Shown: positions 3,686 through 55,707 of the stretch, one piece after another | Numbering within the stretch: position 1 is the stretch's first letter | How the letters are laid out: every line of letters starts with the position of its first letter | DNA from: an uncultured Candidatus Saccharibacteria bacterium | GTDB taxonomy: Bacteria > Patescibacteriota > Saccharimonadia > Saccharimonadales > Saccharimonadaceae | Reading direction: 5' to 3' | Assembly: GCA_938045445.1 (NCBI GenBank) | Contig: CALIMM010000015.1 | Location: forward strand, 122,648 to 186,647 | DNA length: 64,000 nucleotides | The notes under the pieces: model-generated | What the model was told of the DNA's origin: nothing | Database searches by the model: none | The model's input: only the letters and a program-made list of their open reading frames with translations | Program-made: the position numbers and the translations under genes

Positions 3686-3709
3686 GCGACGCCCCGCAGT
3701 ATGCACAAG

Positions 3710-4776: not shown

Positions 4777-4833
4777 ATCTATAAATGCTCATTTGTTCGC
4801 ATACACTACCACCTTGTGATATAATCTATCTCC

Positions 4834-5388: not shown

Positions 5389-5400
5389 CGTAGAGCACTC

Positions 5401-5937: not shown

Positions 5938-6035
5938 AAGGATTATTGTAGCAGATATGGGGTGCGGGGGCGAATTTTTGGAAGATGGGTGCAGTGAGAA
6001 ATGTGTGAAAACGTGAACAATGCTACAATACCACC

Positions 6036-16453: not shown

Positions 16454-16494
16454 CAAGTTTAGTTATAAAGGTATAGTTGTAGTAGAATAGCTAC

Positions 16495-39390: not shown

Positions 39391-40092
39391 TTACCCACGC
39401 ACGCGGCGTTTGCGACGCATACGGGTGCGAGGTTGCTGTGGTGAGGTGTTTGCTGCTGGAGTGGTTGAGCTATAATCTTCGGCTTTGGCATAGTGGCCAG
39501 TGAGATAGTCCTTCGCAGCGGCAATACCAAGGACAGTACCTACAGCAAACGACCCTAGTGCTGCTACACCAGCATAACGCTCAAGCTTACTACCCTCAGG
39601 AGCGAGCGACTTGAGAAAATAGGCAGCAATTGCTATATTATCTGCTGCCATACTGAACTTGCCGGATTTTGGCGTACGGAAGGCTTCATCATTTGTGAGA
39701 CCATGATAGATGGTTGCGCTAGCATTAACGGCATTCTTAGTGGCAATTGTTGCTAAAACTGATTTGGGTACAATATAGAGCTTGCCTGCTATTATACCAA
39801 TCACTGCCATACCGAATTTGTCGCAAAAAGCATCAAACCCTGCACCAAAGTCACTTTCTTGGCGAAGACGTCGTGCCGCTGGGCCATCTGCTGAGTCACA
39901 TGCACGACCACCAAGTATCATGAGTGCGCCAATGACTTGGCCGGTCTTATCATTTTCCCTTGTAGCGGTGTCAAATTTCTGAGCACCGGCAGCTACTAAC
40001 CCTAGCCCAGTAGCCGAGATGGCATTTGGCACAGTAGGAATATCTCTCATGTGATATTCGCGTTGTCTTGGGGGCTGCTCTGCTGTCGCCAT
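39391..40092 (-). CDS. CDP-alcohol phosphatidyltransferase family protein
   Basis: The D-x2-D-G-x2-A-R-x8-G-x3-D-x3-D motif is present as DSADGPAARRLRQESDFGAGFDAFCD. The protein has several TM helices and a basic C-terminal tail. ATG 40050 is an alternative start. Confidence 0.8.
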   Translation of the reverse strand: MATAEQPPRQREYHMRDIPTVPNAISATGLGLVAAGAQKFDTATRENDKTGQVIGALMILGGRACDSADGPAARRLRQESDFGAGFDAFCDKFGMAVIGIIAGKLYIVPKSVLATIATKNAVNASATIYHGLTNDEAFRTPKSGKFSMAADNIAIAAYFLKSLAPEGSKLERYAGVAALGSFAVGTVLGIAAAKDYLTGHYAKAEDYSSTTPAANTSPQQPRTRMRRKRRVRG

Positions 40093-40116
40093 AGTATATA
40101 GTACTGTACCATAATA

Positions 40117-40995
40117 CTAAGCCAATGTCCACTGGTTGGCACCAAGTGAGCGGATAACGCCGTTAATCTCCAGCATTGTCAGGGCAATGGTAAACTCGCT
40201 GATGGGTGTGCCTAGGCGGCGCTGCATTTCTTCGCCGTCGCGCAGGCCTTGGCGCAGTAGCTTGATAATGGCGGCCTCGAGCGGTGTATTACCCAGCGGC
40301 AGAGTGGCATTCTCGCTCTGCTGGCGTTGGGGCGGTGTGATGGTCATGACGGCGAGAACATCGGCTGGGCTGGTGGCGGGCAACGCGCCTTGCTTGAGGA
40401 GATTGTTGCAGCCCTGTGAGAGTGGGCTGGTGATGTTGCCCGGCACCGCAAAGACGTCCTTGCCTTGCTCGAGTGCGTGGGCAGCAGTGTTAAGTGTGCC
40501 ACTGCGCTCGGCTGCCTCGGTGATGACGACGACGTCGGCTAGGCCAGCGACGAGGCGGTTGCGCTCGAGGAAGCTCCAGCTGCCAAAGCGGTAGCCATCC
40601 CCCGCCAGGTGCTCCGACACCACTGCCCCACCCTTGGCCACGATATCACCCGCAAGCGCAGTATGATTGGCCGGATAGATCCGTGGCAAGCCATTGCCCA
40701 GCACAGCGATCGTCGTGCCACCCACCGCCACACAGGCCTGGTGCGCAATGCTGTCAATCCCAAGGGCGAGCCCGCTGATGATGATCACCCCTTGGCGGGT
40801 CAGCTCGCGGGCGAACTGCTCCGTCACTTCCCGACCATAGCGTGTGGGCCGGCGCGACCCAACGATTGCCACGCTGGGGCGGCGCTCCTCGGGCAGTGTA
40901 CCGAGATAGTGAATCTGCTGCGGTGGCTTGGCAATATGGCAGAGTGGATTGAGATATTGGTGGGCTTGTGGTGTGGTGTGATTGATCTGTTGCAT
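40117..40995 (-). CDS. dprA: DNA-processing protein DprA/Smf
   Basis: VAIVGSRRPTRYGREVTEQFARELTRQGVIIISGLALGIDSIAHQA is the Rossmann-like DprA core. The C-terminus is wHTH-like. I prefer ATG 40995 to the track's TTG 41028. Confidence 0.88.
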   Translation of the reverse strand: MQQINHTTPQAHQYLNPLCHIAKPPQQIHYLGTLPEERRPSVAIVGSRRPTRYGREVTEQFARELTRQGVIIISGLALGIDSIAHQACVAVGGTTIAVLGNGLPRIYPANHTALAGDIVAKGGAVVSEHLAGDGYRFGSWSFLERNRLVAGLADVVVITEAAERSGTLNTAAHALEQGKDVFAVPGNITSPLSQGCNNLLKQGALPATSPADVLAVMTITPPQRQQSENATLPLGNTPLEAAIIKLLRQGLRDGEEMQRRLGTPISEFTIALTMLEINGVIRSLGANQWTLA

Positions 40996-41013
40996 AATTT
41001 GTGCTGAAAAGTG

Positions 41014-41042
41014 TTGACATTTTGTCAAGCGGGTGCTAGTAT
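41014..41042 (+). promoter_or_regulatory. Near-consensus sigma-70 promoter TTGACA - 17 nt - TAGTAT with no ORF behind it
   Basis: The -35 is at 41014-41019 and the -10 at 41037-41042. It is divergent from dprA. Confidence 0.5.
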
Positions 41043-41048
41043 CATAAG

Positions 41049-41328
41049 TGATTGATTGAGCGCAAGCTCGTTCAAGTACCTTATACCCCCTATTTTAACA
41101 TAGTTACCCCAGTGTTTTCACGAAGGTAACGTGTTAGGTTGCACACAATCTGTGCTGTAGTTATCTACCCTCCACTGCAGCACCGTTAGACAGGGTTGTG
41201 TGCTTACTAACCCCTTTGTCCAGCGGATCTCGTATGTGTGAGTAGATCACGTATACCCTGATTGGGTGGGACGAAGGGCAAACCAAGCGCTCATAGTGAT
41301 GCCCACCCTTACTATGAGCGCTTTTTTG
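41049..41328 (+). ncRNA. Candidate ~280-nt non-coding transcript or cis-regulatory leader (unclassified)
   Basis: It is bounded by the promoter above and the terminator at 41286-41328. An internal helix pairs GCACACAA..TGT (about 41142-41154) with ACA..TTGTGTGC (about 41194-41207). GGGTGGG (41264-41270) can pair with CCCACCC (41302-41308) in the terminator loop, an alternative fold. There is no ORF. Confidence 0.35.
41286..41328 (+). terminator. Rho-independent terminator
   Basis: AGCGCTCATAGT (41286-41297) pairs with ACTATGAGCGCT (41311-41322), followed by TTTTTTG. Confidence 0.75.
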
Positions 41329-41411
41329 TTGGGGTGAGTTGGTGATGGTCTACTCTTGCAGGGGCTATTTTTTAAGCTGATATACTTTGGCATGCATAGA
41401 GGAGTTATGAA

Positions 41412-41726
41412 TTGCTTTGGTTTGTGACATGCGCTACCAAGGCAAAGGTAGCTGGTATCTGTGGTAGTGGCCACGATCCTGGCGGATTTGCCCTGCTTGT
41501 AGAACTTACTGCAGGGACTGTGAGACTTACATGTAAAGGTTTAATAAAAGGCCTTCTCCGCGTTGCTACGCTCTCTGGCGCAGTATACAATACCTTGTGT
41601 GTTGATAATTTTTCACCCTCAACTACATACTTCTCAATGAGAAAAACGAGCATCGAGAAGTATAGTTGCTATAGCAACATTGTGGCTTGCGATGGGCGCA
41701 CGTATGTGCGCGTCACAGACAAGTAG
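41412..41726 (+). CDS. Possible small Cys-rich protein (104 aa, TTG start)
   Basis: TATACT lies at 41381-41386. SD GGAG (41401-41404) is 7 nt before TTG 41412. The protein has six Cys and no recognisable motif. A 6-codon ATG ORF (41407) in another frame competes. Confidence 0.35.
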   Translation: MLWFVTCATKAKVAGICGSGHDPGGFALLVELTAGTVRLTCKGLIKGLLRVATLSGAVYNTLCVDNFSPSTTYFSMRKTSIEKYSCYSNIVACDGRTYVRVTDK

Positions 41727-42056
41727 AGGTGCAAGCTGAAACGCTATGTGATTGACACACGCTTACACCAGGCATACCTATATAGCCCAGCACGCACAAA
41801 ATCTATGACTGAACAATACTTTTCACCATGTTTTCCTCTGTTATTGCGCAGTGAACTTGTTTTTTGTTCAAGTAGGCGATGAGCGAGAGGGGTGTTTGCT
41901 ATTACTATGATAATACGTACCAGAGTTTGACTATTATATTGATTGCTTTTACTTGTTCAGCGTGATACTGGGCGATGTAAATATATTAAACTACTTATAT
42001 TAAACTACTTTGCTAAATTTGTATTTAGTCCCGCAAAGCGCTATAATGGCCAAACC

Positions 42057-43253
42057 ATGACAGAAATGGCAGTTCGAGAACATAATTCTCATTCATGTTC
42101 GCCTCGCCCCGGGACGCGAATGGAGCGTCTGCAACTCCAGCGGGAGAAGAAAACGAATTTGGGCAAAAAGGTAATTAGTGCAGTGGTAGGCGCAACAATT
42201 GGCTGCATGCCAATGGCTGGTGTGGTCTATGCCAAGCATGCTCAGCACGAGGCGCGGCGGCCATATGAGCCACTGCCGCCGTGTATGGCAGTTGGCCAGC
42301 CTTCGTCGCTTGACCTCACGCAGCCTGAGACGGTAGCCCAGCGCTCACCGGTGGGCATAGCTGAAGCGTTGGGCAATCGCGAGTCGCTGGAGCAGCAAAA
42401 GCAGGAGGCTCTGCAAGCAGTGCAGCACTCCATCGTCAAGATAGAAGCTCATTCTCATAATATGGCGGAGGCAGGCAGCGTGGATATCACTGGCAGTGGC
42501 TACATCATAGCAATGCCAAATGGCAAACCGATGGTGATGACGGCTGCCCATGTGGTGTCTAATAAATATACTATTCGCCAAGCCGACATCACCTTCCAAA
42601 CAACTGACGGCCAGACTCATAAGATACAAAAAGGCTGCCATAATGGCGAAGCACCGCCCGAAGGCCAGTGGAGCTCTGGCATGCCTGATGTAGCGGCACT
42701 GAGGCCGCGTGATGAGCTGCCAGGTAGCTCATCACTCCAGCTTGCAACAGATGAGGAGATAGCGGCAGCGACACAGGCTGGCCAGCCATTCTTTGCGGTG
42801 GGCTTCCCTGCTAATGCGCCGGTGGAGTGGGGGCAACCGATCGCCACGCCACAGGTCGATGTGCTCCTCCCTGCTGGGCAGCGTGGGGCTAATGGCAAGA
42901 TGGTCGTGATCTCGGGCCTTGAGCGGTCGGCTAAAGACGCAAATGATGTTGACGGGCTAGATGATGCAGTTTTGCCTGGTATGTCGGGCGGTGTGGTTGT
43001 TGTACGCACTCCATCTGGCGAGATGAAGGTTGTTGGGATGGTGCAAGCAGTAGCTCAGCCAGCAACGGCGGTTGAGCTCAGTGCGTATGGCATTAAAGAT
43101 GACCCAGAGACAGTGCGCGCATATGAGCCGCGCATTGCCTATCTTGGGAGCATCACAGAGATGCAAGAAGCGTTTACGAGCCTACAAGCAGAAGACGAGT
43201 GGTCGGCAACGAGAGTAATAATGTACCTTGGTGCGGTCTTTCACGAAGATTAG
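42057..43253 (+). CDS. Membrane-anchored trypsin-like (S1) serine protease
   Basis: TAAHVV carries the His, PDVAAL the Asp and GMSGGVVV the Ser. An N-terminal TM segment is present. TATAAT (42042-42047) lies 9 nt before ATG 42057. Confidence 0.8.
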   Translation: MTEMAVREHNSHSCSPRPGTRMERLQLQREKKTNLGKKVISAVVGATIGCMPMAGVVYAKHAQHEARRPYEPLPPCMAVGQPSSLDLTQPETVAQRSPVGIAEALGNRESLEQQKQEALQAVQHSIVKIEAHSHNMAEAGSVDITGSGYIIAMPNGKPMVMTAAHVVSNKYTIRQADITFQTTDGQTHKIQKGCHNGEAPPEGQWSSGMPDVAALRPRDELPGSSSLQLATDEEIAAATQAGQPFFAVGFPANAPVEWGQPIATPQVDVLLPAGQRGANGKMVVISGLERSAKDANDVDGLDDAVLPGMSGGVVVVRTPSGEMKVVGMVQAVAQPATAVELSAYGIKDDPETVRAYEPRIAYLGSITEMQEAFTSLQAEDEWSATRVIMYLGAVFHED

Positions 43254-43309
43254 CTTAGAAGGCCATAGAAGGTGAAGCTCTACCTTATTCTGTGCTATAC
43301 TAAATCACT

Positions 43310-44368
43310 ATGAAACATCTCTGGCATTCTCATCACCCTTTTCGTATTTTTTGGTTTTCGGCACTGCTAACGGTGCTGCTGGGTGGGGCGGTCTTTGGCT
43401 ATTTGGGGACGAGCGGTTTGTGGGTGTTTGCCATCCTGGTGCTGCTGGAGGTGACCTTCAGCTTTGATAACGCCATCATCAATAGCCGCGTCTTGGCAAC
43501 CCTAAGCCCCTTCTGGCAAAAGATCTTCCTGACGGTGGGGATCTTTATTGCGGTGTTTGTGGTGCGATTTGTGCTGCCGATTGTGATTGTGATGATTGCC
43601 GCCCACCTGGGGTTTGGCGATGTGGTGCAGCTTGCTCTACACGACCCAGCCCGCTACGGCCAGGTGCTACACCACGCTGCGCCGATGATCGATGCCTTTG
43701 GCGGTGCCTTCCTTTTGATGATTGGTATTCACTACTTTATGGATCGGCGCAAAACCACCCACTGGCTTAAGGGTGAATCCTGGCTGGCCCGGGCGGGGCG
43801 GTTCGAAAATCTCAAAATCTGCCTAATGCTGAGCGTGGCAGTGGCGCTGTACTTTACGGTGGCGCCGGAGTACCAAACCATCGTGCTGATATCGAGTATT
43901 TTGGGGATTCTGCTGCATATTGGTATAGAGCTGTTTGGCTCGTTCTTCCACGATGATGAGCACGGCGCGGCGCACCAAGCCGGTGCCCAGGTGGGCTGGG
44001 CGGCTTTTGCCAGCTTCCTCTACCTTGAGGTGCTGGATGCTAGCTTTAGCTTTGATGGTGTGATTGGGGCCTTTGCTATTACCACTAGCCTACTGCTGAT
44101 TATCGCGGGCCTGGGTGTGGGGGCAATCTGGGTGCGAGCGCTGACGGTGTATTTGATGCGGGCTGGCACCCTAACCCAGTACCGCTACCTTGAGCACGGT
44201 GCCCACTGGGCGATTATGGCTCTGGGCGCCATGATGTACATTAAGCTCTACCAGGTGGAGCCACCAGAGTGGATTACCGGGAGCATTGGCCTAGTGTTTA
44301 TTGTGACGGCTATCTGCTCGAGCATGTACGAAAAGCGCCGGCTGGCCCGGCGGCAGCAGGCACAGTAG
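43310..44368 (+). CDS. DUF475/TerC-related integral membrane protein
   Basis: LLEVTFSFDNAIINS and LEVLDASFSFDGVIGAF form the duplicated signature. The protein has more than 8 TM helices. TATACT lies 8 nt upstream. Confidence 0.8.
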   Translation: MKHLWHSHHPFRIFWFSALLTVLLGGAVFGYLGTSGLWVFAILVLLEVTFSFDNAIINSRVLATLSPFWQKIFLTVGIFIAVFVVRFVLPIVIVMIAAHLGFGDVVQLALHDPARYGQVLHHAAPMIDAFGGAFLLMIGIHYFMDRRKTTHWLKGESWLARAGRFENLKICLMLSVAVALYFTVAPEYQTIVLISSILGILLHIGIELFGSFFHDDEHGAAHQAGAQVGWAAFASFLYLEVLDASFSFDGVIGAFAITTSLLLIIAGLGVGAIWVRALTVYLMRAGTLTQYRYLEHGAHWAIMALGAMMYIKLYQVEPPEWITGSIGLVFIVTAICSSMYEKRRLARRQQAQ

Positions 44369-44370
44369 GG

Positions 44371-44895
44371 CTAGCGGGGGTTGCCTTCTTCGGCGCCGTG
44401 TGCGTGCCCGCGGGTATGCGTATGGGTGCTGGCACTATGCTGGCAGCGCGGGCAGATACCACTAAGCGCAACGCTATGCTGGCCTAGGCTATAGCCGTGG
44501 CTCCTGGCGGCGGCTTGCAGGGCGGCCTCCAGCTCTGGTGTGGCCACATCCTGGTGTGCGCCACACATCGTACAGGTAATATGGTGGTGGTGCGGCCGGA
44601 AGGGCTCTGCCAGGCTAATGTACGGTGTCCAGCCGCGCATGTGCACGGTGGTAATGCCAATACGCTCGAATACCTGCAGCGCCCGGTAGACACTAGCACG
44701 GTTGCAGCGTGGCGTAGCGGCTGTAGGCTGGGAGCTACCTGCGGCCGGCGCGGCGGTGGCCCGCTCGGCGATGTAGGCCCGCCTAAGCGGCTCATCGGCC
44801 TGCTGCAGCACACGCAGGACTGCCAGGCGCGGTGCGGTAATGCTATAGCCATGGTGGCGTAGATGCTGGGTGATGGGGGTGGTAGTGACTGCCAT
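44371..44895 (-). CDS. Fur-family (Zur-like) metalloregulator with a His-rich tail
   Basis: RLAVLRVLQQ...ASVYRALQVFERIGI is the wHTH, interrupted by an A/P/S/T-rich insertion. HHHHITCTMCG...CPRC are the Cys pairs. The tail reads HSASTHTHTRGHAHG. The start is ATG 44895. Confidence 0.85.
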   Translation of the reverse strand: MAVTTTPITQHLRHHGYSITAPRLAVLRVLQQADEPLRRAYIAERATAAPAAGSSQPTAATPRCNRASVYRALQVFERIGITTVHMRGWTPYISLAEPFRPHHHHITCTMCGAHQDVATPELEAALQAAARSHGYSLGQHSVALSGICPRCQHSASTHTHTRGHAHGAEEGNPR

Positions 44896-44927
44896 ACTAG
44901 CTTTTATAGTAGCGCATGGGCCGTTTT

Positions 44928-44953
44928 GTTGCAATAATACGCAGTTTTGCAAC
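44928..44953. promoter_or_regulatory. Inverted repeat GTTGCAA-N12-TTGCAAC in the fur/ATPase divergent promoter (candidate Fur/Zur operator)
   Basis: The repeat arms are at 44928-44934 and 44947-44953. It lies between the two divergent starts (44895 and 44995). It does not match any Fur/Zur consensus I know. Confidence 0.35.
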
Positions 44954-44994
44954 ATTTTTGCGAAAGGGGGCTGCGAGGAGTACAATTTGCCCAT

Positions 44995-45917
44995 ATGAGA
45001 ATTGCATTTTTAGGAAAGGGTGGCAGCGGCAAAACGACCCTATCGTCGCTGGCAACCCGCTTAGCGCCAGAGCTCTTTACCGAGATCTACGCTATTGACG
45101 CCGATATCAACCTGCACCTGGCGGGGGCTTTGGGCCGGACGCACGCCCAGGCCAGTGCGTTTACGCCGATCTACAAATACGTCGAGGCGACTATTCGCCA
45201 GGCGCGCCCGGAGCTGGCTGAGCTACCCAGCCTGCCCCGTACACTCCCGCCCTATAGCGACGGCGACCGCCTGCCACTTGGGTTCCAGGTGGAGCCGTGG
45301 CGCGGTCTCCCCCACCCGTGCTGCTGGAGCTTGGCTCTTACAGCCAGGAGACCATGGGCTGGTCCTGTCACCACGGGGCACTGGGCAAGCTACAGCTAGT
45401 GCTGGCCCACACGCAGGATAGCCCTGATCAGCTGATTATTGCTGATCTCACGGCTGGTGCTGATGTGTTTGGTGTTGGCATGCTGGGGCTGTTCGACATG
45501 GTGTTCGTGGCGGTTGAGCCAACCATCAAGAGCACGACCATTTACCAGCAGTTGGCCGAGCTTGCAGCCCACGATGACGTCACATTAGTGCCCGTGGGTA
45601 ATAAAATTATTGATGAAACTGACACGGCGTTTATTACTGCGCAGTTGGGCCAGGCACCGGCCTATAGCATTGGTATGTCGAATTTTGTGCGCCGGCTGGA
45701 GCGTGGCGAGCAGCTCGCAACCAGTGATATTGAGCCCACTACAGCCGCCACGGTGCGCCAGCTGCTTGCCGCAGTTGCTGCCCATACCCGCGATGACGCA
45801 GCCATGCGGGCCGCAGCCGTCAAAGCCCATATTCGCGCCGCCCAAAACTGGCCAAAGGCGAAGTTCCCGATTGACCTGCTGAGCCTGCTACCGCCCCAGG
45901 AGCGCCCCGGTGCGTAG
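44995..45917 (+). pseudogene. CooC/MinD-superfamily P-loop ATPase interrupted by a frameshift
   Basis: The N-terminal part (MRIAFLGKGGSGKTT...) is in one frame. The C-terminal part (...VLLELGSYSQETMGWSCHHG...IIADLTAGADVFG...FVAVEPTIKS) is in the frame of ORF 45297-45917. The second frame opens at 45258, and the switch must lie before about 45315 (C5 run at 45309-45313). Confidence 0.7.
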
Positions 45918-47001
45918 CCGCGGTTCTGGCGCTGCGTCGCCACAATCATCCCCCACCCACAGCCTGGCCCCCGGCCAGGTGTTGTGGCTCAGCCGGCAGG
46001 ATGTGCTGGATGCTGGTGGCGGCGATATGGCGCTGGCTACCCAGGCGGTGCAGGAAGCCTTTACGGCCTGGCGGGCTGGCCAGGCACTGCAGCCGGCTAA
46101 GACATCGCTCCGGCTAGCACACAAGCAGCAAGAGGCCCAGGCTGGTGTGGTGAATGTGCTGCCAGCTGCTGTCGCCACACCCGTGGGGACGGTGTTTGGC
46201 GTCAAGGCCCTGGGCGCGATGCCTGGTAACCTCGCCCAGAATGTGCCGCGAGCAACTGGCACCATCACCCTATTTGATGATGCCCACAAAATGCCGATTG
46301 CCATTATGGACGCCCAGGTCGTTAGCGCTATGCGCACCGGGGCGGTTAGTGCACTGGCGGCGCCCAAGCTAGTCCGTACGGATGCCCGTAGCCTGGGCTG
46401 TGTGGGGGCGGGCGTCAATATGATGACGCAAATTCGTGGCTTGCTGCATGCCTTGCCAGGTCTTGATATTATCCGCATCTATAGCCGGGGCGCCAGCAAG
46501 CACCAGTTGGCTGAGCGGCTGCGCCAGCGTTACCCGGCCCTGGCGGTCAGTGCCGTTGATAGTGCCGACGCTGCCGCCGCCGATGCCGATATCGTTGTAA
46601 CCTGCGCGGCTAATGTTAATCAGCCAGTGGTGCCCCTGCAGGCGGTGAACCGGCCGGGGATGACGATATGTAACATCGGCTGCCTCGAAAATGAGCCCCA
46701 GCTGCTGGCCCATATGGATGTGATTGTATCTGATAACTGGCAGCAGAGTAAGCACCGCGGCGTGCAGACCCACGCGGTGGCCTTTAGCCAGGGTATTATT
46801 GCCGATAGCGACGTTACCAACCTAGGTGATATCCTGGCTGGCCAGGCACCAGGCCGCACCACCCCGGCGCAGAAGGTCTTCTTTGGCCCGACTGGCCTGG
46901 GGATTGAAGACATCAGCCTGGCGGCGCATATCTACACCCAAGCCCTGGCGCGAGGCTGCGGCACCGTGCTTGACTTATGGAGTAACCAGCCGTGGATATA
47001 G
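45910..47001 (+). CDS. Ornithine cyclodeaminase/mu-crystallin family protein
   Basis: VLWLSRQDVLDAG...AVQEAFTAW and the Rossmann segment LGCVGAGVNMMTQIRGL...IRIYSR are family-typical. SD AGGAG (45898-45902) is 7 nt before GTG 45910, which overlaps the upstream stop. Confidence 0.8.
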   Translation: MRSRGSGAASPQSSPTHSLAPGQVLWLSRQDVLDAGGGDMALATQAVQEAFTAWRAGQALQPAKTSLRLAHKQQEAQAGVVNVLPAAVATPVGTVFGVKALGAMPGNLAQNVPRATGTITLFDDAHKMPIAIMDAQVVSAMRTGAVSALAAPKLVRTDARSLGCVGAGVNMMTQIRGLLHALPGLDIIRIYSRGASKHQLAERLRQRYPALAVSAVDSADAAAADADIVVTCAANVNQPVVPLQAVNRPGMTICNIGCLENEPQLLAHMDVIVSDNWQQSKHRGVQTHAVAFSQGIIADSDVTNLGDILAGQAPGRTTPAQKVFFGPTGLGIEDISLAAHIYTQALARGCGTVLDLWSNQPWI

Positions 47002-48395
47002 CGGCCCTGGCGCAGTGGACGAGCGCCCTGCAGGCCCTGACGCCGCCCCAGCAGCGTGAGCTCACCCAGCAGCTGGCCAGCATCCCACCGATTACAATTG
47101 CCGGCAAGCAGGCTAGTGTGCTGCTGGCTCCCCTGCCCCTGACGCCGCCAGCCGCGGCCCAGCTTACCCAGGCCATCTATACCCTGCAGGATGCCCTGGT
47201 GGCGATTGAATCCCACCCAAGCTTTATGCCTGGCCAGGTGGTGTACGACCGGCTGTACCAGTCGCTCAGTGCCCAGGGTAAATATTTGGTCGATCACGCG
47301 CCGCCGGTTAGCCCACGCACCATGCGCCGCCGCTTTCGCCGGATTGATGGCTTTTTGCCGCTTGCGCCCCACAGCCCTGGGCCGCAGTTTATTGAGGTGA
47401 ATCAATCCGCGCCCTTAGCAATCAGCTTTTATGAGCGTGCCCGCCAGGCGCTCGCTATAGCTGCCGGGTACGTACCGGCTGTTCAGGCCGCCCCGGCCCC
47501 TAGCGCACCGAACACACCGGGCGTGGCTGATTCGCCATCACTCTACGCAGCGCTGGCAGACTGGTTTATAGACGCTGCCCCGGGCCGATCAAGCCTGACG
47601 GTGGCCGTGAGCATGGAGCGTGGCTACCCAGCAAAGTTTGTCGATCTACCCACCGCCACCGCTGGCATTACCCAGGCTGCCCGGGAGCGTGGTGTAGAGA
47701 TTCGCTTTGTGCTGGCGCAGCCGCCGGAATTTGGCTACCAATCGGGGCGCATGACGGTGCGTGGCCATAGCTTTGATGTGCTGTGGCGTAATACCGTGTA
47801 CCTGGCGAATTATGATGTCGATATTGCCGACTACCAGGCTATCCGCTACAGCCCGGCTGTGGTGCAGCAGAATGACCTGCGGGCCTGGCTGCTGCGCTCG
47901 AAGGAGCTCTTTGCCCTCGCGTGGGACGATACGGTGCAGGCGGTGCTCGCTGATATGGGGGTGGATGTGGCGGCCCTGCGGCGCATCATGCCACCGACCT
48001 ATAGCCTGGCAGCAGCCCAGCAGCTGGATTGGCAGCACACCCACCGCCGGCAGGACTATATTGCAAAACGCTGCGACGATGGCTTTGGCCAGGGGCTGGT
48101 GTTTGGCCACCAGTGCACGGCAAGCCAGTGGCACACCCTGCTGGCAGGCAGCCGCGGCCAGGATTGGGTGGTGCAGCGGCTGGTGCCAGTTGCCCCGGTG
48201 GAGGTGCCGCTGTATACACCAGGCCATGGCATCCACACCCAGGCAGTCACGCTTGATTGCAACCCCTACACCGCTAGCGGTAAGCTGGCCGGGGTGCTCG
48301 CCCGGGCAATGCCGGCAGCACAGCAAACGGCTGGCCCGCAGGCTATGAATATTGTGGCGGGGGCGGCCATCGGTGCCTATACTGGCGTGGTATAG
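46992..48395 (+). CDS. ATP-grasp-like ligase (glutathionylspermidine-synthase / circularly permuted ATP-grasp type)
   Basis: RRIDGFLP...GPQFIEVNQSAPLAISFYE, NDLRAWLLRSKELFALAWD, DYIAKRCDDGFGQGLVF and DWVVQRLVP resemble the conserved blocks of GspS-like/CP-ATP-grasp enzymes, recalled from memory. GTG 46992 overlaps the OCD stop by 10 nt. Confidence 0.55.
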   Translation: MDIAALAQWTSALQALTPPQQRELTQQLASIPPITIAGKQASVLLAPLPLTPPAAAQLTQAIYTLQDALVAIESHPSFMPGQVVYDRLYQSLSAQGKYLVDHAPPVSPRTMRRRFRRIDGFLPLAPHSPGPQFIEVNQSAPLAISFYERARQALAIAAGYVPAVQAAPAPSAPNTPGVADSPSLYAALADWFIDAAPGRSSLTVAVSMERGYPAKFVDLPTATAGITQAARERGVEIRFVLAQPPEFGYQSGRMTVRGHSFDVLWRNTVYLANYDVDIADYQAIRYSPAVVQQNDLRAWLLRSKELFALAWDDTVQAVLADMGVDVAALRRIMPPTYSLAAAQQLDWQHTHRRQDYIAKRCDDGFGQGLVFGHQCTASQWHTLLAGSRGQDWVVQRLVPVAPVEVPLYTPGHGIHTQAVTLDCNPYTASGKLAGVLARAMPAAQQTAGPQAMNIVAGAAIGAYTGVV

Positions 48396-48952
48396 ACGCG
48401 CTGGCTGGTATCGGCCAGGGTGCCCGCCACAAACTGCTCTACCAGGGCGGTAGTGGCTGGGATGATGGCTGTATTGAGTGCCTCCTGCTCTGCTTGGCTG
48501 AGGGGCTTGAGCACAAAGGTCGCATCGCCCATGCGCCGCCGCAGCGGGTTGTGGATACCAATCCGCAGCCGCGCGTAGCCTTGGCCCAGGTGGGCATTGA
48601 GCGATTTAATACCATTATTGCCAGCATCGCTACCACTGTGGCGCACACGAATGATGCCAAATTCCAGCGCTAGCTCGTCATGGATAACAAGCACGTCACT
48701 AAGCGATACTTTATAAAAATCCATAATTGCCCGAGCCGCCCGGCCGGTATCGTTATAAAAGGTGGTTGGCTTAGCCAGCAGCACTGGCTGGCCAGCAATG
48801 GTAGCACTGGCGGTGGCGGCGTGCAGCTTGGGCTTGGTGGCAAACTGGGCGCCGTGCGCGTGGGCCAGCGCGTCCAGGCACTGCCAGCCAATATTATGGC
48901 GGGTGCGGGCGTACTCGCTGCCAGGGTTGCCTTGGGCGAAGAGTAATTTCAT
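48377..48952 (-). CDS. pth: Peptidyl-tRNA hydrolase
   Basis: MKLLFAQGNPGSEYARTRHNIGW...VIHDELALEFG...GSDAGNNGIKS. TATACT lies 7 nt upstream. Confidence 0.92.
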   Translation of the reverse strand: MKLLFAQGNPGSEYARTRHNIGWQCLDALAHAHGAQFATKPKLHAATASATIAGQPVLLAKPTTFYNDTGRAARAIMDFYKVSLSDVLVIHDELALEFGIIRVRHSGSDAGNNGIKSLNAHLGQGYARLRIGIHNPLRRRMGDATFVLKPLSQAEQEALNTAIIPATTALVEQFVAGTLADTSQRVYTTPV

Positions 48953-49212
48953 ACGTATTAGTATAGCATGGATGAGGTCTTGTCGTGGCTGTAGTGCAAG
49001 GCTGCGATTATATAAAAAGCATTAGCACCATTGCTGGTGCTATAACTGAACCGAAAATGTTCCGGCTAGATTATACTACAGCGATCATTCGCCTGCTGTA
49101 TGGCTGGCCTCCATATATTTTCTTGTTCAACTTTTCACCGTACCCCAGTAGTCTTGCTATCAAGATGCCCGTTAGAGCGAGCGGGCATGCCCTGCCATGC
49201 TATACTAAACTC

Positions 49213-50181
49213 ATGGCCCAGCGCGATAACGATCTTGAATTTAGCCTCAATGCTGCCTTTGATGAGCAGCGCACCCAGCCTGGCCTGGTACCACTCTACC
49301 TCATCAATGGCTCGCTCGGGGCGGGCAAGACAAGCGTGCTGGAGTATCTTTTGCGTCAGCCGGAGTTTGCTGGCTCGCGCGTGATTGAGAATGAATATGC
49401 CAACGAGAATGTCGATGGCTACCGGCTAGAAGGCCTGGCGGAGCTTGTAACGACGCTGGCGGGCGACTGCGTGTGCTGCTCGTCCAAGCATGCCTTGACG
49501 CGCATGCTGCTGGATTTTTGCCAGTCGTCCCCTGCCCCAGTTTTTATCGAGGCAACAGGGGTCGCGCGGACGATGAACTTGGTGGAGAAGCTCATCAATG
49601 CCCGGATCTTCGACAAATACGAGCTGCTGCAGAGCTATTATGTCATCACGGCGCACGAGATTTTGCACGGTATTGAGCCAGCCCACGAGGTGGAGCTGCA
49701 AGCCGCCGATACAATCCTTATTACCAAAGAAGATCTTCTGCACGGTGATGATCGCACTACCTATGATACCAAGCGCCGCGCCCTGCCCTACGCGCGGGTG
49801 CTGTCTGCGCCGCATGGGTATTTTGACCTTAGTAAGATCACAACGCCGTCGAGTCTGCTCACCTTCTTCGATACCTATGATGGCGAGCTTGCCGTGCCAG
49901 ATAACCCAACCTATAGCGTCATCGATATGTCGCAGCTCACTGCTACCGAGGCAGCCTTTGAGACGCTGTGGCTCGAGCTCTTTGCGACGTATGAGCTGCG
50001 CCGGCTCAAGGGGTGCTTTATTGATGAGCATGGCGCGCGCCGGCACATCGAGGCTACGCCTGAGCAAATTCAGATCACCACTGGCCAGTCTGGCGAAGCA
50101 CCCAAGCTGGTATGTATTGGTACCCATGCCAGCAGCATCACCCGCGATGGGTTGGCGGCGCAGCTGATGATGTTTGGGTAA
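49213..50181 (+). CDS. CobW/YjiA/ZigA-type G3E GTPase (metallochaperone family)
   Basis: The P-loop is INGSLGAGKTS and the metal-binding CxCC is GDCVCCS. TATACT (49201-49206) lies 6 nt before ATG 49213. The track's upstream extension is not protein-like. Confidence 0.85.
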   Translation: MAQRDNDLEFSLNAAFDEQRTQPGLVPLYLINGSLGAGKTSVLEYLLRQPEFAGSRVIENEYANENVDGYRLEGLAELVTTLAGDCVCCSSKHALTRMLLDFCQSSPAPVFIEATGVARTMNLVEKLINARIFDKYELLQSYYVITAHEILHGIEPAHEVELQAADTILITKEDLLHGDDRTTYDTKRRALPYARVLSAPHGYFDLSKITTPSSLLTFFDTYDGELAVPDNPTYSVIDMSQLTATEAAFETLWLELFATYELRRLKGCFIDEHGARRHIEATPEQIQITTGQSGEAPKLVCIGTHASSITRDGLAAQLMMFG

Positions 50182-50556
50182 GGTAGGCCTGAGGAGTCTC
50201 TCGGGCTTATCCACTAACTCCACTGGTAGGATCTATTGCAGAGGATGAGGGTTGATTATTATTGGCTTGGATGTAAAAATTTTTCCTCTTTTGCGTCATT
50301 CTCTCTTCTCTGTAGCGCCAGTACGAGAGGTTGGTATTGAGTCTTATATACATCAGAGGAGGATGATATGGCAAGAAGCAGTATCGAAAGATAGATCTAT
50401 ACCATAATAAAACCCCACCTACCCCTACTTTGTTGCACGCAAAAACAGAGGTAGATGGGTGTGATATTATGGGTCTTGCGATTTCTTAGCCCTTCCTTAA
50501 GCGAGGAGTATTCGTCGACCTGGATTGCTTGGCCGTATAGGCCACTAGAAGCCACA

Positions 50557-50763
50557 CTACTGATTCTTATCAAGGAATTCGCTCAGCTTCTCATCGATCG
50601 ATGTGAGCGATTGGCTCATCTGATTGACTCGCCGGACGAACCAAACAAGTAGCCAAATAGCCACCACAAATAGCACAACATGGAAGGCGACGGCCGACCA
50701 AAAAAGCGCATTTGCCTCGGGCGCGCGAATCAACAAAGCAAAATAAGCTGGTATATGAGTCAT
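50557..50763 (-). CDS. Small membrane protein (68 aa)
   Basis: SD AAGGAG lies 7 nt before ATG 50763. There are two hydrophobic helices, then SLTSIDEKLSEFLDKNQ. Confidence 0.55.
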   Translation of the reverse strand: MTHIPAYFALLIRAPEANALFWSAVAFHVVLFVVAIWLLVWFVRRVNQMSQSLTSIDEKLSEFLDKNQ

Positions 50764-50806
50764 GGTACAACTCCTTGTGTTATTAGTTATTACTGAATGT
50801 TGTTTG

Positions 50807-50844
50807 CCCACCCAGCCTTATGTTACACAATAAGGCTGGGTGGG
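50807..50844 (-). terminator. 14-bp perfect hairpin after the secreted-protein gene (no U-tract)
   Basis: CCCACCCAGCCTTA (50807-50820) pairs with TAAGGCTGGGTGGG (50831-50844). Confidence 0.4.
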
Positions 50845-50855
50845 CGTTCCGGTGG

Positions 50856-51194
50856 CTAGTCCAGCTTCAGGCAGGACCAGCCCTCAGCGAGCGCGGCGTT
50901 CGTTACCTCGGCCTTGGAACCGGGGTAGAATCGGTTGCAGTAGCCCTGGATGTCGACACTACCAGCCGACCCAAACGACACACCGAACGGGAACGTGTAC
51001 GACATGTCGTAACACGTCCATGTGTACGGCTCGCCGAAGAAGTTGTAGACACCGGAGTGCCCCTGCAGGCGGCAAGCCTCCTCAATATCCGCCGGCCACT
51101 CGCCGTCGGCGGCGTTCGCCGGCGAGCTCAAAACGAACCCGCCCACCGCCAACGCAGCGGTAGCACCCAAGGACGCGATCTTCCGGAACTTCAT
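50856..51194 (-). CDS. Small secreted Cys-containing protein (112 aa)
   Basis: SD GAGGAGG. The signal peptide is MKFRKIASLGATAALAVGGFVLSSPANA. The mature part has four Cys. Confidence 0.7.
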   Translation of the reverse strand: MKFRKIASLGATAALAVGGFVLSSPANAADGEWPADIEEACRLQGHSGVYNFFGEPYTWTCYDMSYTFPFGVSFGSAGSVDIQGYCNRFYPGSKAEVTNAALAEGWSCLKLD

Positions 51195-51473
51195 GTTATC
51201 CTCCTCTAGGATTCCAGGAGCCCAAGATTTTTGGGCTCAACCAACATGACGATTTGATTGTAGCTGATATATATATATCAATACTTGTTATGATATATTG
51301 CAATAATACGGTAAAATAACAGTGGTAAGTGCTGTCTATTCTACAACGATTTTGTTCGAAAATAGGCGAACATGGTCAGGGCTATGCACCAACAGGAAGA
51401 GAACGATACATACTCTACTAATTATGCCATAAAACACCCTAAGATAGGTTGCCCTGCAAGCGTCAGAAAGCAC

Positions 51474-52904
51474 TTACAAACGGCTCTTGCCTGGGCCCTG
51501 TGTGCTTTGCCCTTCGGCATTCTTGCGCTGCTTATATGCTTTCGTCACAGGTTCGAGACCGCGCTTGACGCGCTCGCGGTTGGCTTTGAGCTGCTTCTCG
51601 TCGCGGAAGGAGAGCTTGATGGGGGTGCCAGTGTAGTCGTAGGTGTCGCGGATGCGCCGCTCGAGGTAGCGCTTGTAGCTCCAGTGGACGAACTTGAGGT
51701 TGCTGCCGTAGATAACGAACCATGGTGGGTTGGTGTCTGTCTGGACGATGTAGCGCAGCTTGGGGTGGGTATTCTTGAGGCCAGCTGGTGGGTGCTTCTG
51801 CACAGAGCGCTGCAGGAGGTCGTTGAGGGTGCGCGTGGTGGTCTTTTGCTGGCGATGAGCAGCAATGCCAAGGGCGAGGTCGAATAATTTCGTCACATTC
51901 TGGCCCGTAACAGCACTGGTGAAGATGAGTGGTGCCCATGGTGTGAAGTCGAACTGGGCGGAGATCTGCGGGGCGAGTGCATCGCGCGTGTAGGCATCTT
52001 TGCCTTCCACGGCGTCCCATTTGCTCACGACGATGGCCATGCCCTTGCCTGCCTCGGCAATGATACCTGCAAGCCGCTGGTCGAGGGCGGTGTTGAGCTC
52101 GTTCACATCCATCAGGAGGAAGCAGATGTCAGCCTCCTCGATGGCAGCCAGGGTGCGCAAGACGCTAAATTTCTCGATGCCCACCTCCTGCTTGCCTTGG
52201 CGGCGAATGCCGGCGGTGTCGAGCAGCTCGATGGTTTGCCCCTGGTAGCGCAGGCGGATGCGATTGACATCGCGCGTGGTGCCTGCTACCCCAGCCACGA
52301 TGGCCTGCTGCTTGCCTGCCAGGGTGTTGAAGAGGCTGGATTTGCCGACATTGGGCCGGCCGATCAACGCAATCTTGAGCACATCACTTGGCTCTGCTTG
52401 GCGCTTCTCTGGGATGTGCTGGCAAATCTCATCCAGCGCATCGCTAATACCACTGTTGTGCTCGGCACTGGTACGGATGATACTCTTGATGCCAAGGCGG
52501 AGGAATTCACTGGTGGGCAGGCTGCCCCGCAGGTCGGTTTTGTTGGCGATGAGAATGACGGGTTTGCGGCTCTTGAGGGCGGTCTTGGCAACGCGCCGGT
52601 CTTCGTCACTGGGGTATTCGGTGCTATCCACCACCACGAGAATGACGTCGGCCGCGTCGGATGCATCGGTGATTTGCTCTTGGATACTTGCCTCAAACTC
52701 GTCTTCTGCTGGCTTGAGGCCAGCGGTGTCGACCAGCCAGAACTCATGCCCATGGTAGGCTGCCTTGCCCACCACCCGATCGCGCGTCGTACCGGCCTCG
52801 CGTGCCACGATAGCCTGCTGCGAGCGCATCATACGATTAAACAGCGAGCTCTTGCCAGCATTGGCACGCCCGATGATTGCAACGGTAGGAAGTTTGGTAG
52901 CCAT
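51474..52904 (-). CDS. der: Ribosome-biogenesis GTPase Der (EngA)
   Basis: There are two tandem G domains (GRANAGKSSLFN ... DTAG ... NKTD; GRPNVGKSSLFN ... DTAG ... SKWD) plus a KH-like C-terminus. TATAAT lies 9 nt upstream. Confidence 0.93.
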   Translation of the reverse strand: MATKLPTVAIIGRANAGKSSLFNRMMRSQQAIVAREAGTTRDRVVGKAAYHGHEFWLVDTAGLKPAEDEFEASIQEQITDASDAADVILVVVDSTEYPSDEDRRVAKTALKSRKPVILIANKTDLRGSLPTSEFLRLGIKSIIRTSAEHNSGISDALDEICQHIPEKRQAEPSDVLKIALIGRPNVGKSSLFNTLAGKQQAIVAGVAGTTRDVNRIRLRYQGQTIELLDTAGIRRQGKQEVGIEKFSVLRTLAAIEEADICFLLMDVNELNTALDQRLAGIIAEAGKGMAIVVSKWDAVEGKDAYTRDALAPQISAQFDFTPWAPLIFTSAVTGQNVTKLFDLALGIAAHRQQKTTTRTLNDLLQRSVQKHPPAGLKNTHPKLRYIVQTDTNPPWFVIYGSNLKFVHWSYKRYLERRIRDTYDYTGTPIKLSFRDEKQLKANRERVKRGLEPVTKAYKQRKNAEGQSTQGPGKSRL

Positions 52905-54030: not shown

Positions 54031-55578
54031 TTAGTGCGACCCGGCCGATGATGGTGTTGCCCGCTCAGTCTCTTCGAAACTGAGGTTGTCGTGGCTGTGC
54101 TGTATGGCCGGCGCTGGGCGCGAAGGTGTGGCTCCTGGCTGAGGCACTGATGCCGCATGATGAGTGGTTGATGGTTGCCCTGCTGCGGCGTTGACGGGCT
54201 GTGCTGGAGCAGAATGCGCTGCAGCAACGGGAGCTGGGCGGATGGCATCGTAGAGTGGATGATCGACTGGTGAGACCGACGGATGAGCGGCTGCACTGCC
54301 CTGGAGCAACGCCGCGGCTAGTGCATCAGACGGGTCTGCAGCAATGGCCTGTGGGCTGTGTGGCGTAATAGCTGCGCTATCAGCAGCCTCGTGATGTTCG
54401 TGGTGAGTAACTGGTGGCTGCGCTGAGGCTGCTGGTGCTGGATGGCTTGGCGCTGGTGTGCTATATGCTGTGGCGGCTGGCGGTTGCGGCTCAACAGGGG
54501 TTGGCATGGTATCCATCTGCTCATTAAGGCTGGCCACGGCGTCTGTGACGAGCTGGTTTTGGCTTGGCTGGTAGGTGGCTGCATCGGTGTCTGCCTCATC
54601 ATCGGTCTGCTGTGTGCTCATGTGGAGAGCTTCGGCCAATTCGGCTTCGTCGTCGGCTGGAGTGTGGGTGTAGTGAGCAGGCTGGCTCGCCACAATGTGG
54701 TGATGTACATCTGGAATACCTGATGGCGCTGTGCTGTGCGGCGCAATAATATCGTTAATAAGTGGCTGCGTAGCGGGAGTATCACTGGCTGGTGGTGTGT
54801 GCAGATGTGTAGCTTCTGCTGGGCTTGGTGCGCTATTAGCAGGGGCTGGGTGTTCATCGTGATGCCTGATGATCTCAGCCTCTGGTGTTTCTTCGGCTGG
54901 CGGCAAGGTGAATGGCTGTGGCGTGGTGGGCCCGGCCGGTGGCGTGGGCGTCGTGGGTTGTGGAGCGCCATTGGCGGCGTCCAGCTCGTCGTCTATTAAG
55001 CTGGCATAATCTGGCCTCGGCATCGAAGATTGCAGGGGGTGGATCACTCGCTCACCCAGGCTGGCTGGCCGCGGTGTAGAGAATGGCGCTGTGGGCTGCG
55101 GCAGTGTGGTAGGCTGGGGCTGACTGGCTAGTGGCACTGGGTTGGCTGGTGCGCTTGGCTGAGGTTCAGGAGTGGTATGTGCTGCTGGCCGGTGGCTCAC
55201 CCCTGTATCGCCAAGGACGTCGTGCACAGCACGCACTACATCTTCAATGCCAACCTGCGATTTGACGAGGTAGCGGTCTGCTCCCAGTGCCTCGCCGCGC
55301 ATGCGCTGGTCTTGGCTCGAGAGTGCTGTCATGATAATCACCTTGATGCCACGCGTCTCGGTGGTGCTGCGCAAGATATCGAGCATGTCGAAGCCACTAA
55401 TCTTGGGCATCATCACATCGCTGATGATGAGCTGTGGACGTTCTTTGATAGCCATGGCGAGTGCTTCTTCCCCATCGCCGGCCGACACGATGTCATACCC
55501 CTCGGCCAACAGGCGTACTCCGTATATTTCGCGCAGGCTTTTGTCGTCTTCGACAAGCAGAATCTTAACCTTTGTCAT
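54031..55578 (-). CDS. Response-regulator receiver domain fused to a ~390-aa P/A/T/H-rich low-complexity tail
   Basis: MTKVKILLVEDDKSLREIYG...LIISDVMMPKISGFDML...IIMTALS...YLVKS is a CheY-like receiver. The remainder has no recognisable output domain. Confidence 0.85.
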   Translation of the reverse strand: MTKVKILLVEDDKSLREIYGVRLLAEGYDIVSAGDGEEALAMAIKERPQLIISDVMMPKISGFDMLDILRSTTETRGIKVIIMTALSSQDQRMRGEALGADRYLVKSQVGIEDVVRAVHDVLGDTGVSHRPAAHTTPEPQPSAPANPVPLASQPQPTTLPQPTAPFSTPRPASLGERVIHPLQSSMPRPDYASLIDDELDAANGAPQPTTPTPPAGPTTPQPFTLPPAEETPEAEIIRHHDEHPAPANSAPSPAEATHLHTPPASDTPATQPLINDIIAPHSTAPSGIPDVHHHIVASQPAHYTHTPADDEAELAEALHMSTQQTDDEADTDAATYQPSQNQLVTDAVASLNEQMDTMPTPVEPQPPAATAYSTPAPSHPAPAASAQPPVTHHEHHEAADSAAITPHSPQAIAADPSDALAAALLQGSAAAHPSVSPVDHPLYDAIRPAPVAAAHSAPAQPVNAAAGQPSTTHHAASVPQPGATPSRPAPAIQHSHDNLSFEETERATPSSAGSH

Positions 55579-55707
55579 ATCACCCTCTATTGTACGCAAT
55601 TGTCAGCGAAAATACCATAGTGCTTGTGGTTTTTTTGAGAGGAATTGATAGAAAGAGCCGCCTCAGTGGTGGTGTGGGCGCACAATTGGATTTGCATAGA
55701 GAGATTG

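Follow-up and report, generated by a model that had tools for sequence, protein, structure and literature searches.

A stretch of 64,000 nucleotides of DNA from an uncultured Candidatus Saccharibacteria bacterium (contig CALIMM010000015.1, positions 122,648 to 186,647; hereafter ‘the window’) carries the gene for a Fur-family regulator, which is transcribed divergently from a set of three overlapping genes (‘the cassette’) that encode a P-loop ATPase of the CooC/MinD type, a dehydrogenase of the ornithine cyclodeaminase (OCD)/mu-crystallin family and an ATP-grasp ligase. The regulator gene (174 codons; 44371-44895, reverse strand; PF01475) and the cassette are separated by a control region of exactly 99 nt (44896-44994), within which lie several TTGCAA boxes and a promoter-like match. 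On the forward strand, the ATPase gene (44995-45917, recognized through a profile match to CooC1, PDB entry 3kje) is interrupted; it is followed by the gene for an SbnB-like NAD(P) dehydrogenase of 363 residues (45910-47001; PF02423), whose GTG start precedes the end of the ATPase gene by 8 nt, and then by the gene for a circularly permuted ATP-grasp amide ligase of 467 residues (46992-48395, assigned by predicted fold and profile homology), whose start overlaps the dehydrogenase stop by 10 nt. The identical 10-nt overlap is found in distant relatives. Beyond the cassette lie pth (48377-48952, reverse strand), which converges upon it, and a gene for a COG0523 (CobW-family) G3E GTPase with a GDCVCC motif (49213-50181, forward strand; PF02492, 83.7 bits against a cut-off of 20.7), which in the window is a separate transcription unit and is not co-transcribed with the cassette. 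A preliminary description of the locus had given these coordinates, the 99-nt spacer, the overlaps of 8 and 10 nt, and the position of a CobW gene with a CVCC motif behind pth; all were confirmed, and the five assignments of genes to families were upheld by profile, sequence and structure comparisons.

The dehydrogenase scores 161.6 bits against PF02423 (cut-off 24; E=2.9e-47) and carries the Rossmann-type motif VGAGVN. Its best NCBIfam model is that of SbnB (TIGR03944), at 186.9 bits against an equivalog cut-off of 326.9 that is not reached, and its best sequence match in the PDB is again SbnB (4m54; E=4e-39, over the full length), ahead of an archaeal alanine dehydrogenase and a pyrroline-2-carboxylate reductase. 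The closest relative of the enzyme is thus a protein of the L-2,3-diaminopropionate branch of staphyloferrin B synthesis, which serves a siderophore pathway of iron starvation. The two systems differ, however, both in the score of the dehydrogenase, which falls below the equivalog cut-off, and in the lack of SbnB’s obligatory partner SbnA at the locus; with SbnA missing, the substrate of the dehydrogenase is probably different from that of SbnB.

The ligase matches no Pfam or NCBIfam model (the match to GSP_synth, PF03738, is not significant), and its family is a small one: just 23 clusters were found in a database of 5.8 billion proteins, none of them named or provided with a Pfam domain, and relatives are present in 15 of 185,579 GTDB species representatives. 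The close and moderately distant relatives all come from Candidatus Saccharibacteria. An AlphaFold model of the ligase, built with 17 homologues (predicted local distance difference test (pLDDT) 85; predicted template modelling (TM) score 0.86), was matched by Foldseek most closely to eukaryotic glutathione synthetases (8fbz and 2hgs; E about 1e-17 to 1e-16, TM 0.63-0.65), followed by GspS (TM 0.42-0.46), YgiC/YjfC and trypanothione synthetase, with sequence identities to the solved structures of 12-16%. The original designation of the protein as an ‘ATP-grasp-like amide ligase’ therefore stands, by fold and by profile, while its further description as ‘GspS-type’ is imprecise, since the best structural matches are the eukaryotic glutathione synthetases.

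An exhaustive hidden Markov model search with the ligase recovered 911 relatives at E<=1e-3, and when distant relatives were scanned their top Pfam family was PF14403 (circularly permuted ATP-grasp type 2), which exceeded its cut-off in two of six. The window ligase itself has no direct match to PF14403, and members of its subfamily give sub-threshold matches only. Profile alignment (hhalign) of the ligase with PF14403-like relatives, for which PF14403 was the top Pfam match in four of five members scanned (above the cut-off in one), gave a probability of 100% and E=2.8e-43 over 426 columns, and the columns that are invariant in those relatives (R..D, E.N...P, K, KP, Q, R and N) align with conserved residues of the ligase. 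The conserved motifs of the latter are R-x-x-R-x-D, E-x-N-Q-x-x-P, K-P/R-x-D-x-G-F-G and M-N; residues R114, R117, D119, N137, Q138, P141, W191, E209, D262, W265, R266, N294 and Q395 are invariant throughout the family, and those that are nearly so include E135, K304, K359, D362, D422, R438 and M452. A check of the ATP-binding residues thus came out in favour of the assignment, the ligase having kept the residues that are invariant in the aligned permuted ATP-grasp relatives. The only solved structure that can be detected from the ligase by sequence is Cp1B (9cjn), through a local match over the glycine-rich loop; Cp1B, an ATP-grasp enzyme built like glutathione synthetase, couples a dicarboxylic acid to an L-amino acid (PMC12568646). 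On the model and the alignments, the protein is a predicted, divergent circularly permuted ATP-grasp enzyme of an undescribed subfamily, which shares with glutathione synthetase, Cp1B and the PF14403 ligases their fold, full-length profile homology, conserved motifs and (in the case of Cp1B) the glycine-rich loop, and which differs from them in being tied to an OCD-family gene, an association that has not been reported for those enzymes.

The remaining member of the cassette, the ATPase, is intact in its relatives, at 308-312 residues, and has as its closest known counterpart CooC, the ATPase that inserts nickel into CO dehydrogenase. The family profile matches CooC1 (3kje) with E=3.8e-19, and a structural model (pLDDT 90) has 3kje as its top Foldseek match, followed by MinD, FlhG/FleN, NifH and the ATPase-type HypB. 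The protein displays a deviant Walker A motif of the MinD/CooC type (GKGGSGKT) together with the corresponding fold, and at the position of the CooC nickel-binding motif it carries a potential metal-ligand pair, with the Cys-x-Cys of CooC aligned to an invariant C128-x-H130. The differences from CooC are also clear: the pair is Cys-x-His rather than Cys-x-Cys, the ATPase exceeds CooC by some 55 residues and has both an insertion and a helical extension at its C-terminus, and no gene for CO dehydrogenase or acetyl-CoA synthase was found in any locus examined. As a type, it is predicted to resemble the dimerizing, metal-handling ATPases of the SIMIBI class. Homologues of about 35% identity are common in Actinobacteria, where they are annotated as ‘CO dehydrogenase maturation factor’. 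The Cys-x-His homologues of that group (loci L022-L025, including Streptomyces canus and Labedaea rhizosphaerae) are each followed by a gene for a 130-residue KH_NucS_shadow (PF20704) protein; with this partner, and with neither a dehydrogenase nor a ligase beside it, the actinobacterial context was set aside as a clue to function.

In the window genome, the ATPase gene runs in frame 1 from 44995 to 45399 and then in frame 3 to 45917, as the result of a 10-bp deletion between positions 45317 and 45318, which was identified by alignment with a 92%-identical relative and is flanked by CACC microhomology. The ten missing bases are present in all of the approximately 28 relatives of 90-94% nucleotide identity, so that in this genome we are dealing with a pseudogene, with a split gene or with an error of assembly. 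Thus, of the three overlapping genes originally described, the dehydrogenase and ligase overlap as stated and the ATPase is interrupted, and the suggestion that two metallochaperone-type NTPases operate together fails for this strain. In L011, L052 and L053, several frameshifts are scattered over the three cassette genes, probably because these assemblies contain many errors and not because the loci have decayed.

Cassette loci were mapped by tblastn in Saccharibacteria and other genomes, among 15 GTDB species and additional metagenome contigs. All Saccharibacteria loci recovered show the three cassette genes overlapping and in the order ATPase, dehydrogenase, ligase, at identities to the window proteins of 42-47% for the ligase and 52-61% for the ATPase and dehydrogenase across lineages. 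The surroundings, on the other hand, change from lineage to lineage. In the clade of the window, the regulator gene is convergent with a gene for a DUF475/TerC-family membrane protein (43310-44368, forward strand; PF04332, 316 bits), and the cassette is followed by the opposing pth and then by CobW in the direction of the cassette. In L001 and L002, the slot of DUF475 is held by a gene for a ZIP transporter that likewise converges upon the Fur-family gene, the cassette being found on the other side; in L003 and L019, the Fur-family gene points away from a single operon in which ZIP precedes the cassette; and in L006, L020 and L021, CobW directly follows the ligase gene on the same strand and no Fur-family gene is nearby. 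The ZIP proteins, which are encoded beside the cassette or by the first gene of its operon in two lineages, have ZupT as their best NCBIfam match. The entry of ZIP transporters and COG0523 genes into the operon in other lineages strengthens the link of the cassette to metal homeostasis; it is uncertain whether the DUF475/TerC protein belongs to the system.

Outside of Saccharibacteria, the dehydrogenase and ligase genes remain together in unrelated genomes. In L026 (32% GC), a Fur-family gene, the ATPase, the dehydrogenase and the ligase abut on one strand. The ATPase is missing from the remaining loci with the pair, which span 36-70% GC: in L028, L056, L057 and the P0292 contig the ligase gene is followed by one for an EamA transporter, in L029 the pair is divergent from a Fur-family gene, and in L055 and L058 the pair stands alone. 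EamA thus follows the pair four times, and a Fur-family gene adjoins it twice. The neighbourhood of dehydrogenase and ligase, on which the original proposal of a shared pathway depended, is in this way conserved both within Saccharibacteria and among unrelated genomes whose GC contents range from 32 to 70%. Because the pair persists without the ATPase outside of Saccharibacteria and L026, the pair is the functional core of the system; the Fur-family, ZIP and COG0523 genes are its recurrent companions, and the ATPase is an addition to the pair that is seen here only in Saccharibacteria loci and L026. Some arrangements at the edge of the family were also recorded. One remote homologue of the ligase (P0039, with 24% identity to the first sequence of the profile) directly follows a gene for a 794-residue fusion of HMGL-like and GNAT domains (L030, 7617-11455; L031, 2004-5842), and in L030 an Ldh_2-family gene is found near it. 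The Ldh_2 family includes imine reductases such as DpkA, and the arrangement hints at an analogous logic of imine reductase plus ligase. In L055 (70% GC), the pair is convergent with a gene for a 973-residue membrane protein (3557-6478, reverse strand), the C-terminal half of which, judged by eye from its GLGSG and EPSNPW motifs, looks like an aminopropyltransferase of the spermidine synthase type.

The control region between the regulator and the cassette had been described as containing the inverted repeat GTTGCAA-N12-TTGCAAC. That repeat is present (44928-44953) and is the sole exact copy in the window; however, because TTGCAA is itself a palindrome, it amounts to two such hexamers spaced 18 nt apart, and with up to three mismatches allowed the repeat has two matches in the window against 3.7 expected, so that by itself it lies within chance. 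The unit that is conserved, in every orthologous Saccharibacteria promoter, is the hexamer. Boxes are found in the window at 44929-44934 and 44947-44952 (both TTGCAA) and, in the degenerate form TTGCGA, at 44958-44963, which is 11 nt further on. Relative to the start codon of the ATPase gene, the hexamers begin at -66, -48 and -37 nt in the window and in L001, and at -61, -49 and -38 nt in L006 and L020. It is this conservation at equal distances from the start codon, across lineages with protein identities of only 42-57%, rather than the repeat alone, that gives the boxes their significance. The ZIP-led operon of L003 is preceded by two hexamers arranged as a perfect 9-1-9 palindrome (ATTGCAAAT-T-ATTTGCAAT), which is the usual architecture of a Fur-family operator. 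Over the Saccharibacteria loci (3-21 kb each), the promoter sites are the only exact pairs of hexamers, and the few pairs with one mismatch elsewhere all lie off promoters or within coding sequence. The sole other site of the TTGCAA-N5-TTGCAA kind in the window, TTGCAG-N5-TTGCAA at 55982-55998, was rejected as an operator because it falls inside a hypothetical open reading frame (55891-56349); the site, which is one mismatch from the operator core, is kept in close relatives, probably just as coding sequence.

Eight nucleotides separate the ATPase start codon from a -10-like hexamer, TACAAT (44981-44986), and in the window as well as in other lineages the promoter-proximal hexamer lies 17-18 nt upstream of TACAAT, TACGAT or TATAAT. 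By its sequence, then, the promoter-proximal box (TTGCGA in the window) is a putative -35 element as well. Since the -10-like hexamer (TACAAT or TACGAT) ends just 7-8 nt before the ATG in three lineages (window, 44981-44997; L001, 6020-6043; L006, 3690-3710), the messenger RNA of the cassette may be leaderless or nearly so. Where ZIP is the first gene (L003), there is a Shine-Dalgarno sequence, and the -10 element is placed 50 nt upstream. The boxes are kept in L006 and L020, where no Fur-family gene adjoins, which fits a regulator that acts in trans. No pair of TTGCAA hexamers was found upstream of CobW or DUF475 in the window, or upstream of the ZIP gene of L001. Nor does the motif occur in L026 and L029, which lie outside of Saccharibacteria; Fur-family operators there, if any, would differ. 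An Rfam scan of positions 40000-52000 (run in E-value mode) revealed no riboswitch or other RNA. From the adjacency of its gene and the architecture of the operator, we infer that the Fur-like protein binds the boxes.

The regulator belongs by profile to the Fur family (PF01475, 51.7 bits against a cut-off of 23.1) and contains a cluster of histidines before the first of two CxxC pairs (HHHHITCTMCG and GICPRC), the pairs being those of a putative structural zinc site; residues H103, H105, C108, C148 and C151 are invariant in five lineages. The histidine-rich tail that had been noted at its C-terminus is present (...CQHSASTHTHTRGHAHGAEEGNPR, with five histidines among the last 23 residues) and is kept, in the form QH(S/R)ASTHTHxxGHAHG, in all close relatives, and it is absent from the orthologues in L001 and L003. 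Proteins of the window clade further possess an Ala/Pro-rich insertion of about 20 residues (~46-66) in the N-terminal DNA-binding domain, which L001 and L003 lack. When the Fur-like proteins of five lineages were compared with the NCBIfam models of Fur, Zur, PerR and Irr, all scores were sub-threshold: the Fur models gave 46 to 59 bits and the Zur model 26 to 39, the Zur equivalog NF008646 stood at 26.5 bits against a cut-off of 167, with Fur and PerR models scoring as well or better, and the proteins of L026 and L029 scored best against PerR models, again far under the cut-offs. Profile scores of this kind do not type the regulator as Zur, Fur or PerR. The company that it keeps, however, suggests a Zur-like protein, since COG0523 proteins with a CxCC motif are classical companions of Zur regulons (PMC2770081, PMC6103462), and such regulons commonly include COG0523 genes together with importers of the ZIP/ZupT kind, to which metallophore genes are added in some actinomycetes and pathogens (PMC6103462, PMC2770081). 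On the strength of the ZupT matches of the ZIP proteins, the CxCC-containing COG0523 companions and the conserved histidine-rich tail in the window clade, zinc is favoured over iron, manganese or peroxide as the probable signal.

Our preferred interpretation, which we hold with slightly less than even confidence, is that the cassette is a metal-starvation operon, in which a Fur-family (Zur-like) repressor controls a pathway to an amide-linked, amino-acid-derived and metal-related metabolite. When metal is sufficient, a metallated dimer of the Fur-family protein would sit on the TTGCAA palindrome and repress both its own gene and the operon, presumably by occluding the promoter (the boxes overlap the putative -35 element of the operon and also lie within the regulator’s own divergent promoter), as Fur-family repressors usually do; a shortage of the metal, most probably zinc, would lift this repression from the operon. 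The dehydrogenase might then use NAD(P)-dependent imine chemistry to make or remodel an alpha-amino or N-alkyl amino acid, a proposal based on the activities of SbnB, alanine dehydrogenase and ketimine reductases of the same family, and the ligase would join a carboxylate to an amine, through an acyl-phosphate, to form an amide. The product would likely be a polar, polydentate amino acid derivative that binds or buffers metal, and in those phyla where a carboxylate/amino acid/amine transporter of the EamA type follows the pair, it may be exported; EamA is the commonest predicted type of efflux protein in opine zincophore clusters (PMC7438024). In Saccharibacteria, a role of the product in buffering or mobilizing metal inside the cell seems at least as likely as secretion, because neither an exporter nor an importer of complexes is linked to the cassette there and an importer of free ions, ZIP, can share the operon. 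The metal itself would be handled by the Cys-x-His ATPase and the COG0523 GTPase.

A more ambitious form of this proposal, to which we give only tentative credence, holds that the pair constitutes a previously unrecognized two-enzyme route to an amino-acid-derived chelator, and thus a new class of zincophore or zinc buffer, that is exported through EamA in several phyla, and that in the ultra-small, host-dependent Saccharibacteria this route has been coupled to control by a Zur-like repressor and to a ZIP importer, a COG0523 GTPase and the Cys-x-His ATPase, the last as the first zinc-linked metallochaperone of the CooC/MinD type.

Several observations weigh against a metal-starvation operon. 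Fur and PerR models give the regulator slightly higher scores than Zur models do, the cut-off never being reached. A search for further copies of the repeat, which had been suggested for predicting a regulon, disclosed no second operator site in the 64 kb of the window and some 40 loci, and no regulon has been defined. No enzyme of the SbnA type (a pyridoxal-phosphate-dependent, cysteine-synthase-like protein and the usual partner of SbnB) is encoded in the window locus or the related loci, and in Saccharibacteria no importer of metal-ligand complexes and no exporter is linked to the cassette. The position of ZIP in other lineages is taken in the window clade by the DUF475 gene, and the TerC family to which its product belongs is more often linked to manganese. 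Finally, the ATPase is dispensable in other phyla and broken in the window genome, and one ligase homologue (L032) stands alone, with no adjoining dehydrogenase.

Among the alternatives, the one that survives best, though we consider it unlikely, assigns the pair to metal sparing or metabolic rewiring: dehydrogenase and ligase would replace or bypass a zinc-dependent step of amino acid or envelope metabolism, and the NTPases would metallate the clients that remain. The lack of an exporter linked to the Saccharibacteria cassette agrees with such a role, as does the breadth of the OCD family, which includes alanine dehydrogenases and enzymes that form proline or pipecolate, and COG0523 genes under Zur control typically cluster with zinc-independent paralogues of zinc enzymes (PMC2770081). 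However, no zinc-dependent enzyme has been identified whose reaction the pair would replace, the ligase family is very rare and is no paralogue of a housekeeping enzyme, and the presence of EamA behind the pair in four unrelated loci fits transport of a product across the membrane.

A somewhat less likely alternative retains the architecture of the preferred reading and changes the metal, so that an iron or manganese sensor of the Fur or Mur type would control a product for the acquisition or buffering of those metals. The higher scores of the Fur models over the Zur model can be quoted in its favour, yet the regulators score so far under the family cut-offs that these values do not type the protein. 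Similarly, ZIP transporters can carry iron or manganese besides zinc (the family is named ‘ZIP zinc/iron transport family’), but the best match of the ZIP proteins in question is to ZupT; and while the TerC-family DUF475 gene abuts the regulator gene in the window and SbnB, the closest characterized relative of the dehydrogenase, comes from an iron siderophore pathway, genes for iron uptake, ferritin or haem, as are typical of Fur regulons, are missing from the window. Most COG0523 genes that are found beside Fur-family regulators and metal importers are linked to zinc, which also counts against iron or manganese.

It is more doubtful still that the locus responds to oxidative stress, with a PerR-like regulator and with a protective compound, such as a thiol peptide resembling glutathione or trypanothione, as the product of the pair. 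The top structural relatives of the ligase do all belong to thiol metabolism (glutathione, glutathionylspermidine and trypanothione synthetases), but the fold does not fix the substrate, and Cp1B, the one relative detectable by sequence, uses a non-thiol dicarboxylate (PMC12568646); the best scores of the Fur-like proteins in L026 and L029 are indeed those of PerR models, but these too are far below their cut-offs. No gene for a catalase, peroxiredoxin or Dps is present in the loci, and the ZIP and COG0523 neighbours point to metal supply. That unrelated genes have merely been packed side by side in a small genome, next to a chance inverted repeat, is very improbable, for although short overlaps between unrelated genes are frequent in small genomes and the repeat alone is within the chance expectation of the window, the gene order, overlaps and box positions are kept across distant lineages and the pair recurs in genomes of 32-70% GC.

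If the cassette is a metal-starvation operon, it is best compared with the Zur-controlled aminopolycarboxylate and opine zincophore clusters, namely those for [S,S]-ethylenediamine disuccinate (EDDS; aes of Amycolatopsis japonicum) and for staphylopine and pseudopaline (cnt). These, too, consist of a small set of amino acid enzymes that is independent of non-ribosomal peptide synthetases (NRPS), there placed under a Fur-family zinc repressor, and the EDDS cluster includes SbnA/SbnB-like genes. In A. japonicum, it was reportedly zinc-dependent regulation that led to the EDDS genes (primary paper in the reference list of PMC6103462). Many opine zincophore clusters contain efflux proteins of the EamA type (PMC7438024), as are found beside the dehydrogenase-ligase pair in four of the present loci. 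The locus described here differs from the zincophore clusters in having no importer of metal-ligand complexes and no SbnA-like enzyme, and in possessing an ATP-grasp ligase and a CooC-like ATPase; neither a nicotianamine-synthase-like CntL nor an opine dehydrogenase CntM is among the genes of the window locus or of the related loci. The earlier impression that the combination matches no known metallophore cluster is borne out by the absence of CntL, CntM and SbnA alike. A second point of comparison is provided by the Zur-regulated COG0523 GTPases YciC, ZigA and ZagA, with which the window GTPase shares a CxCC motif and a genomic link to a Fur-family regulator and a ZIP importer (PMC2770081). 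It is distinguished from them by scores far below the equivalog cut-offs of ZigA and CobW, and by its placement in a transcription unit of its own with no recognizable box.

Literature on pairs of OCD-family and permuted ATP-grasp enzymes, on zinc and Fur in Saccharibacteria and on Zur in connection with CooC yielded no description of the system, which appears to be an undescribed case of metal-regulated, NRPS-independent synthesis of a small molecule. Saccharibacteria are described as having genomes of about 1 Mb and lacking most biosynthetic pathways, and for that reason a dedicated, tightly conserved and apparently regulated small-molecule pathway is unexpected in them and suggests that its product matters for life on the host. 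Should the product prove to be a metal ligand, the metallophores or metal buffers would gain a new chemical class, built by two enzyme families outside the known zincophore pathways, and metal homeostasis in the candidate phyla radiation would for the first time become approachable. Two of the proteins are of interest in their own right: the ligase family has neither a Pfam or NCBIfam model nor a characterized member, and the conserved Cys-x-His variant of CooC, which is widespread in Actinobacteria as well, represents a type of putative metallochaperone.

Pfam scans of 20 other proteins of the window found no further metal-related genes, enzymes dependent on pyridoxal phosphate or exporters. 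Two features outside the locus were noted in passing. At 16495-17610 the window encodes a KwaB-like protein (PF16162, E=6.5e-11), preceded by an open reading frame of 273 codons without a Pfam match, and with these two (15632-17610) this Saccharibacteria genome may possess an anti-phage pair of the Kiwa type. The reverse strand at 54031-55599 encodes a response-regulator receiver domain with a low-complexity tail behind it, some 400 residues long and rich in proline, threonine, alanine and histidine.

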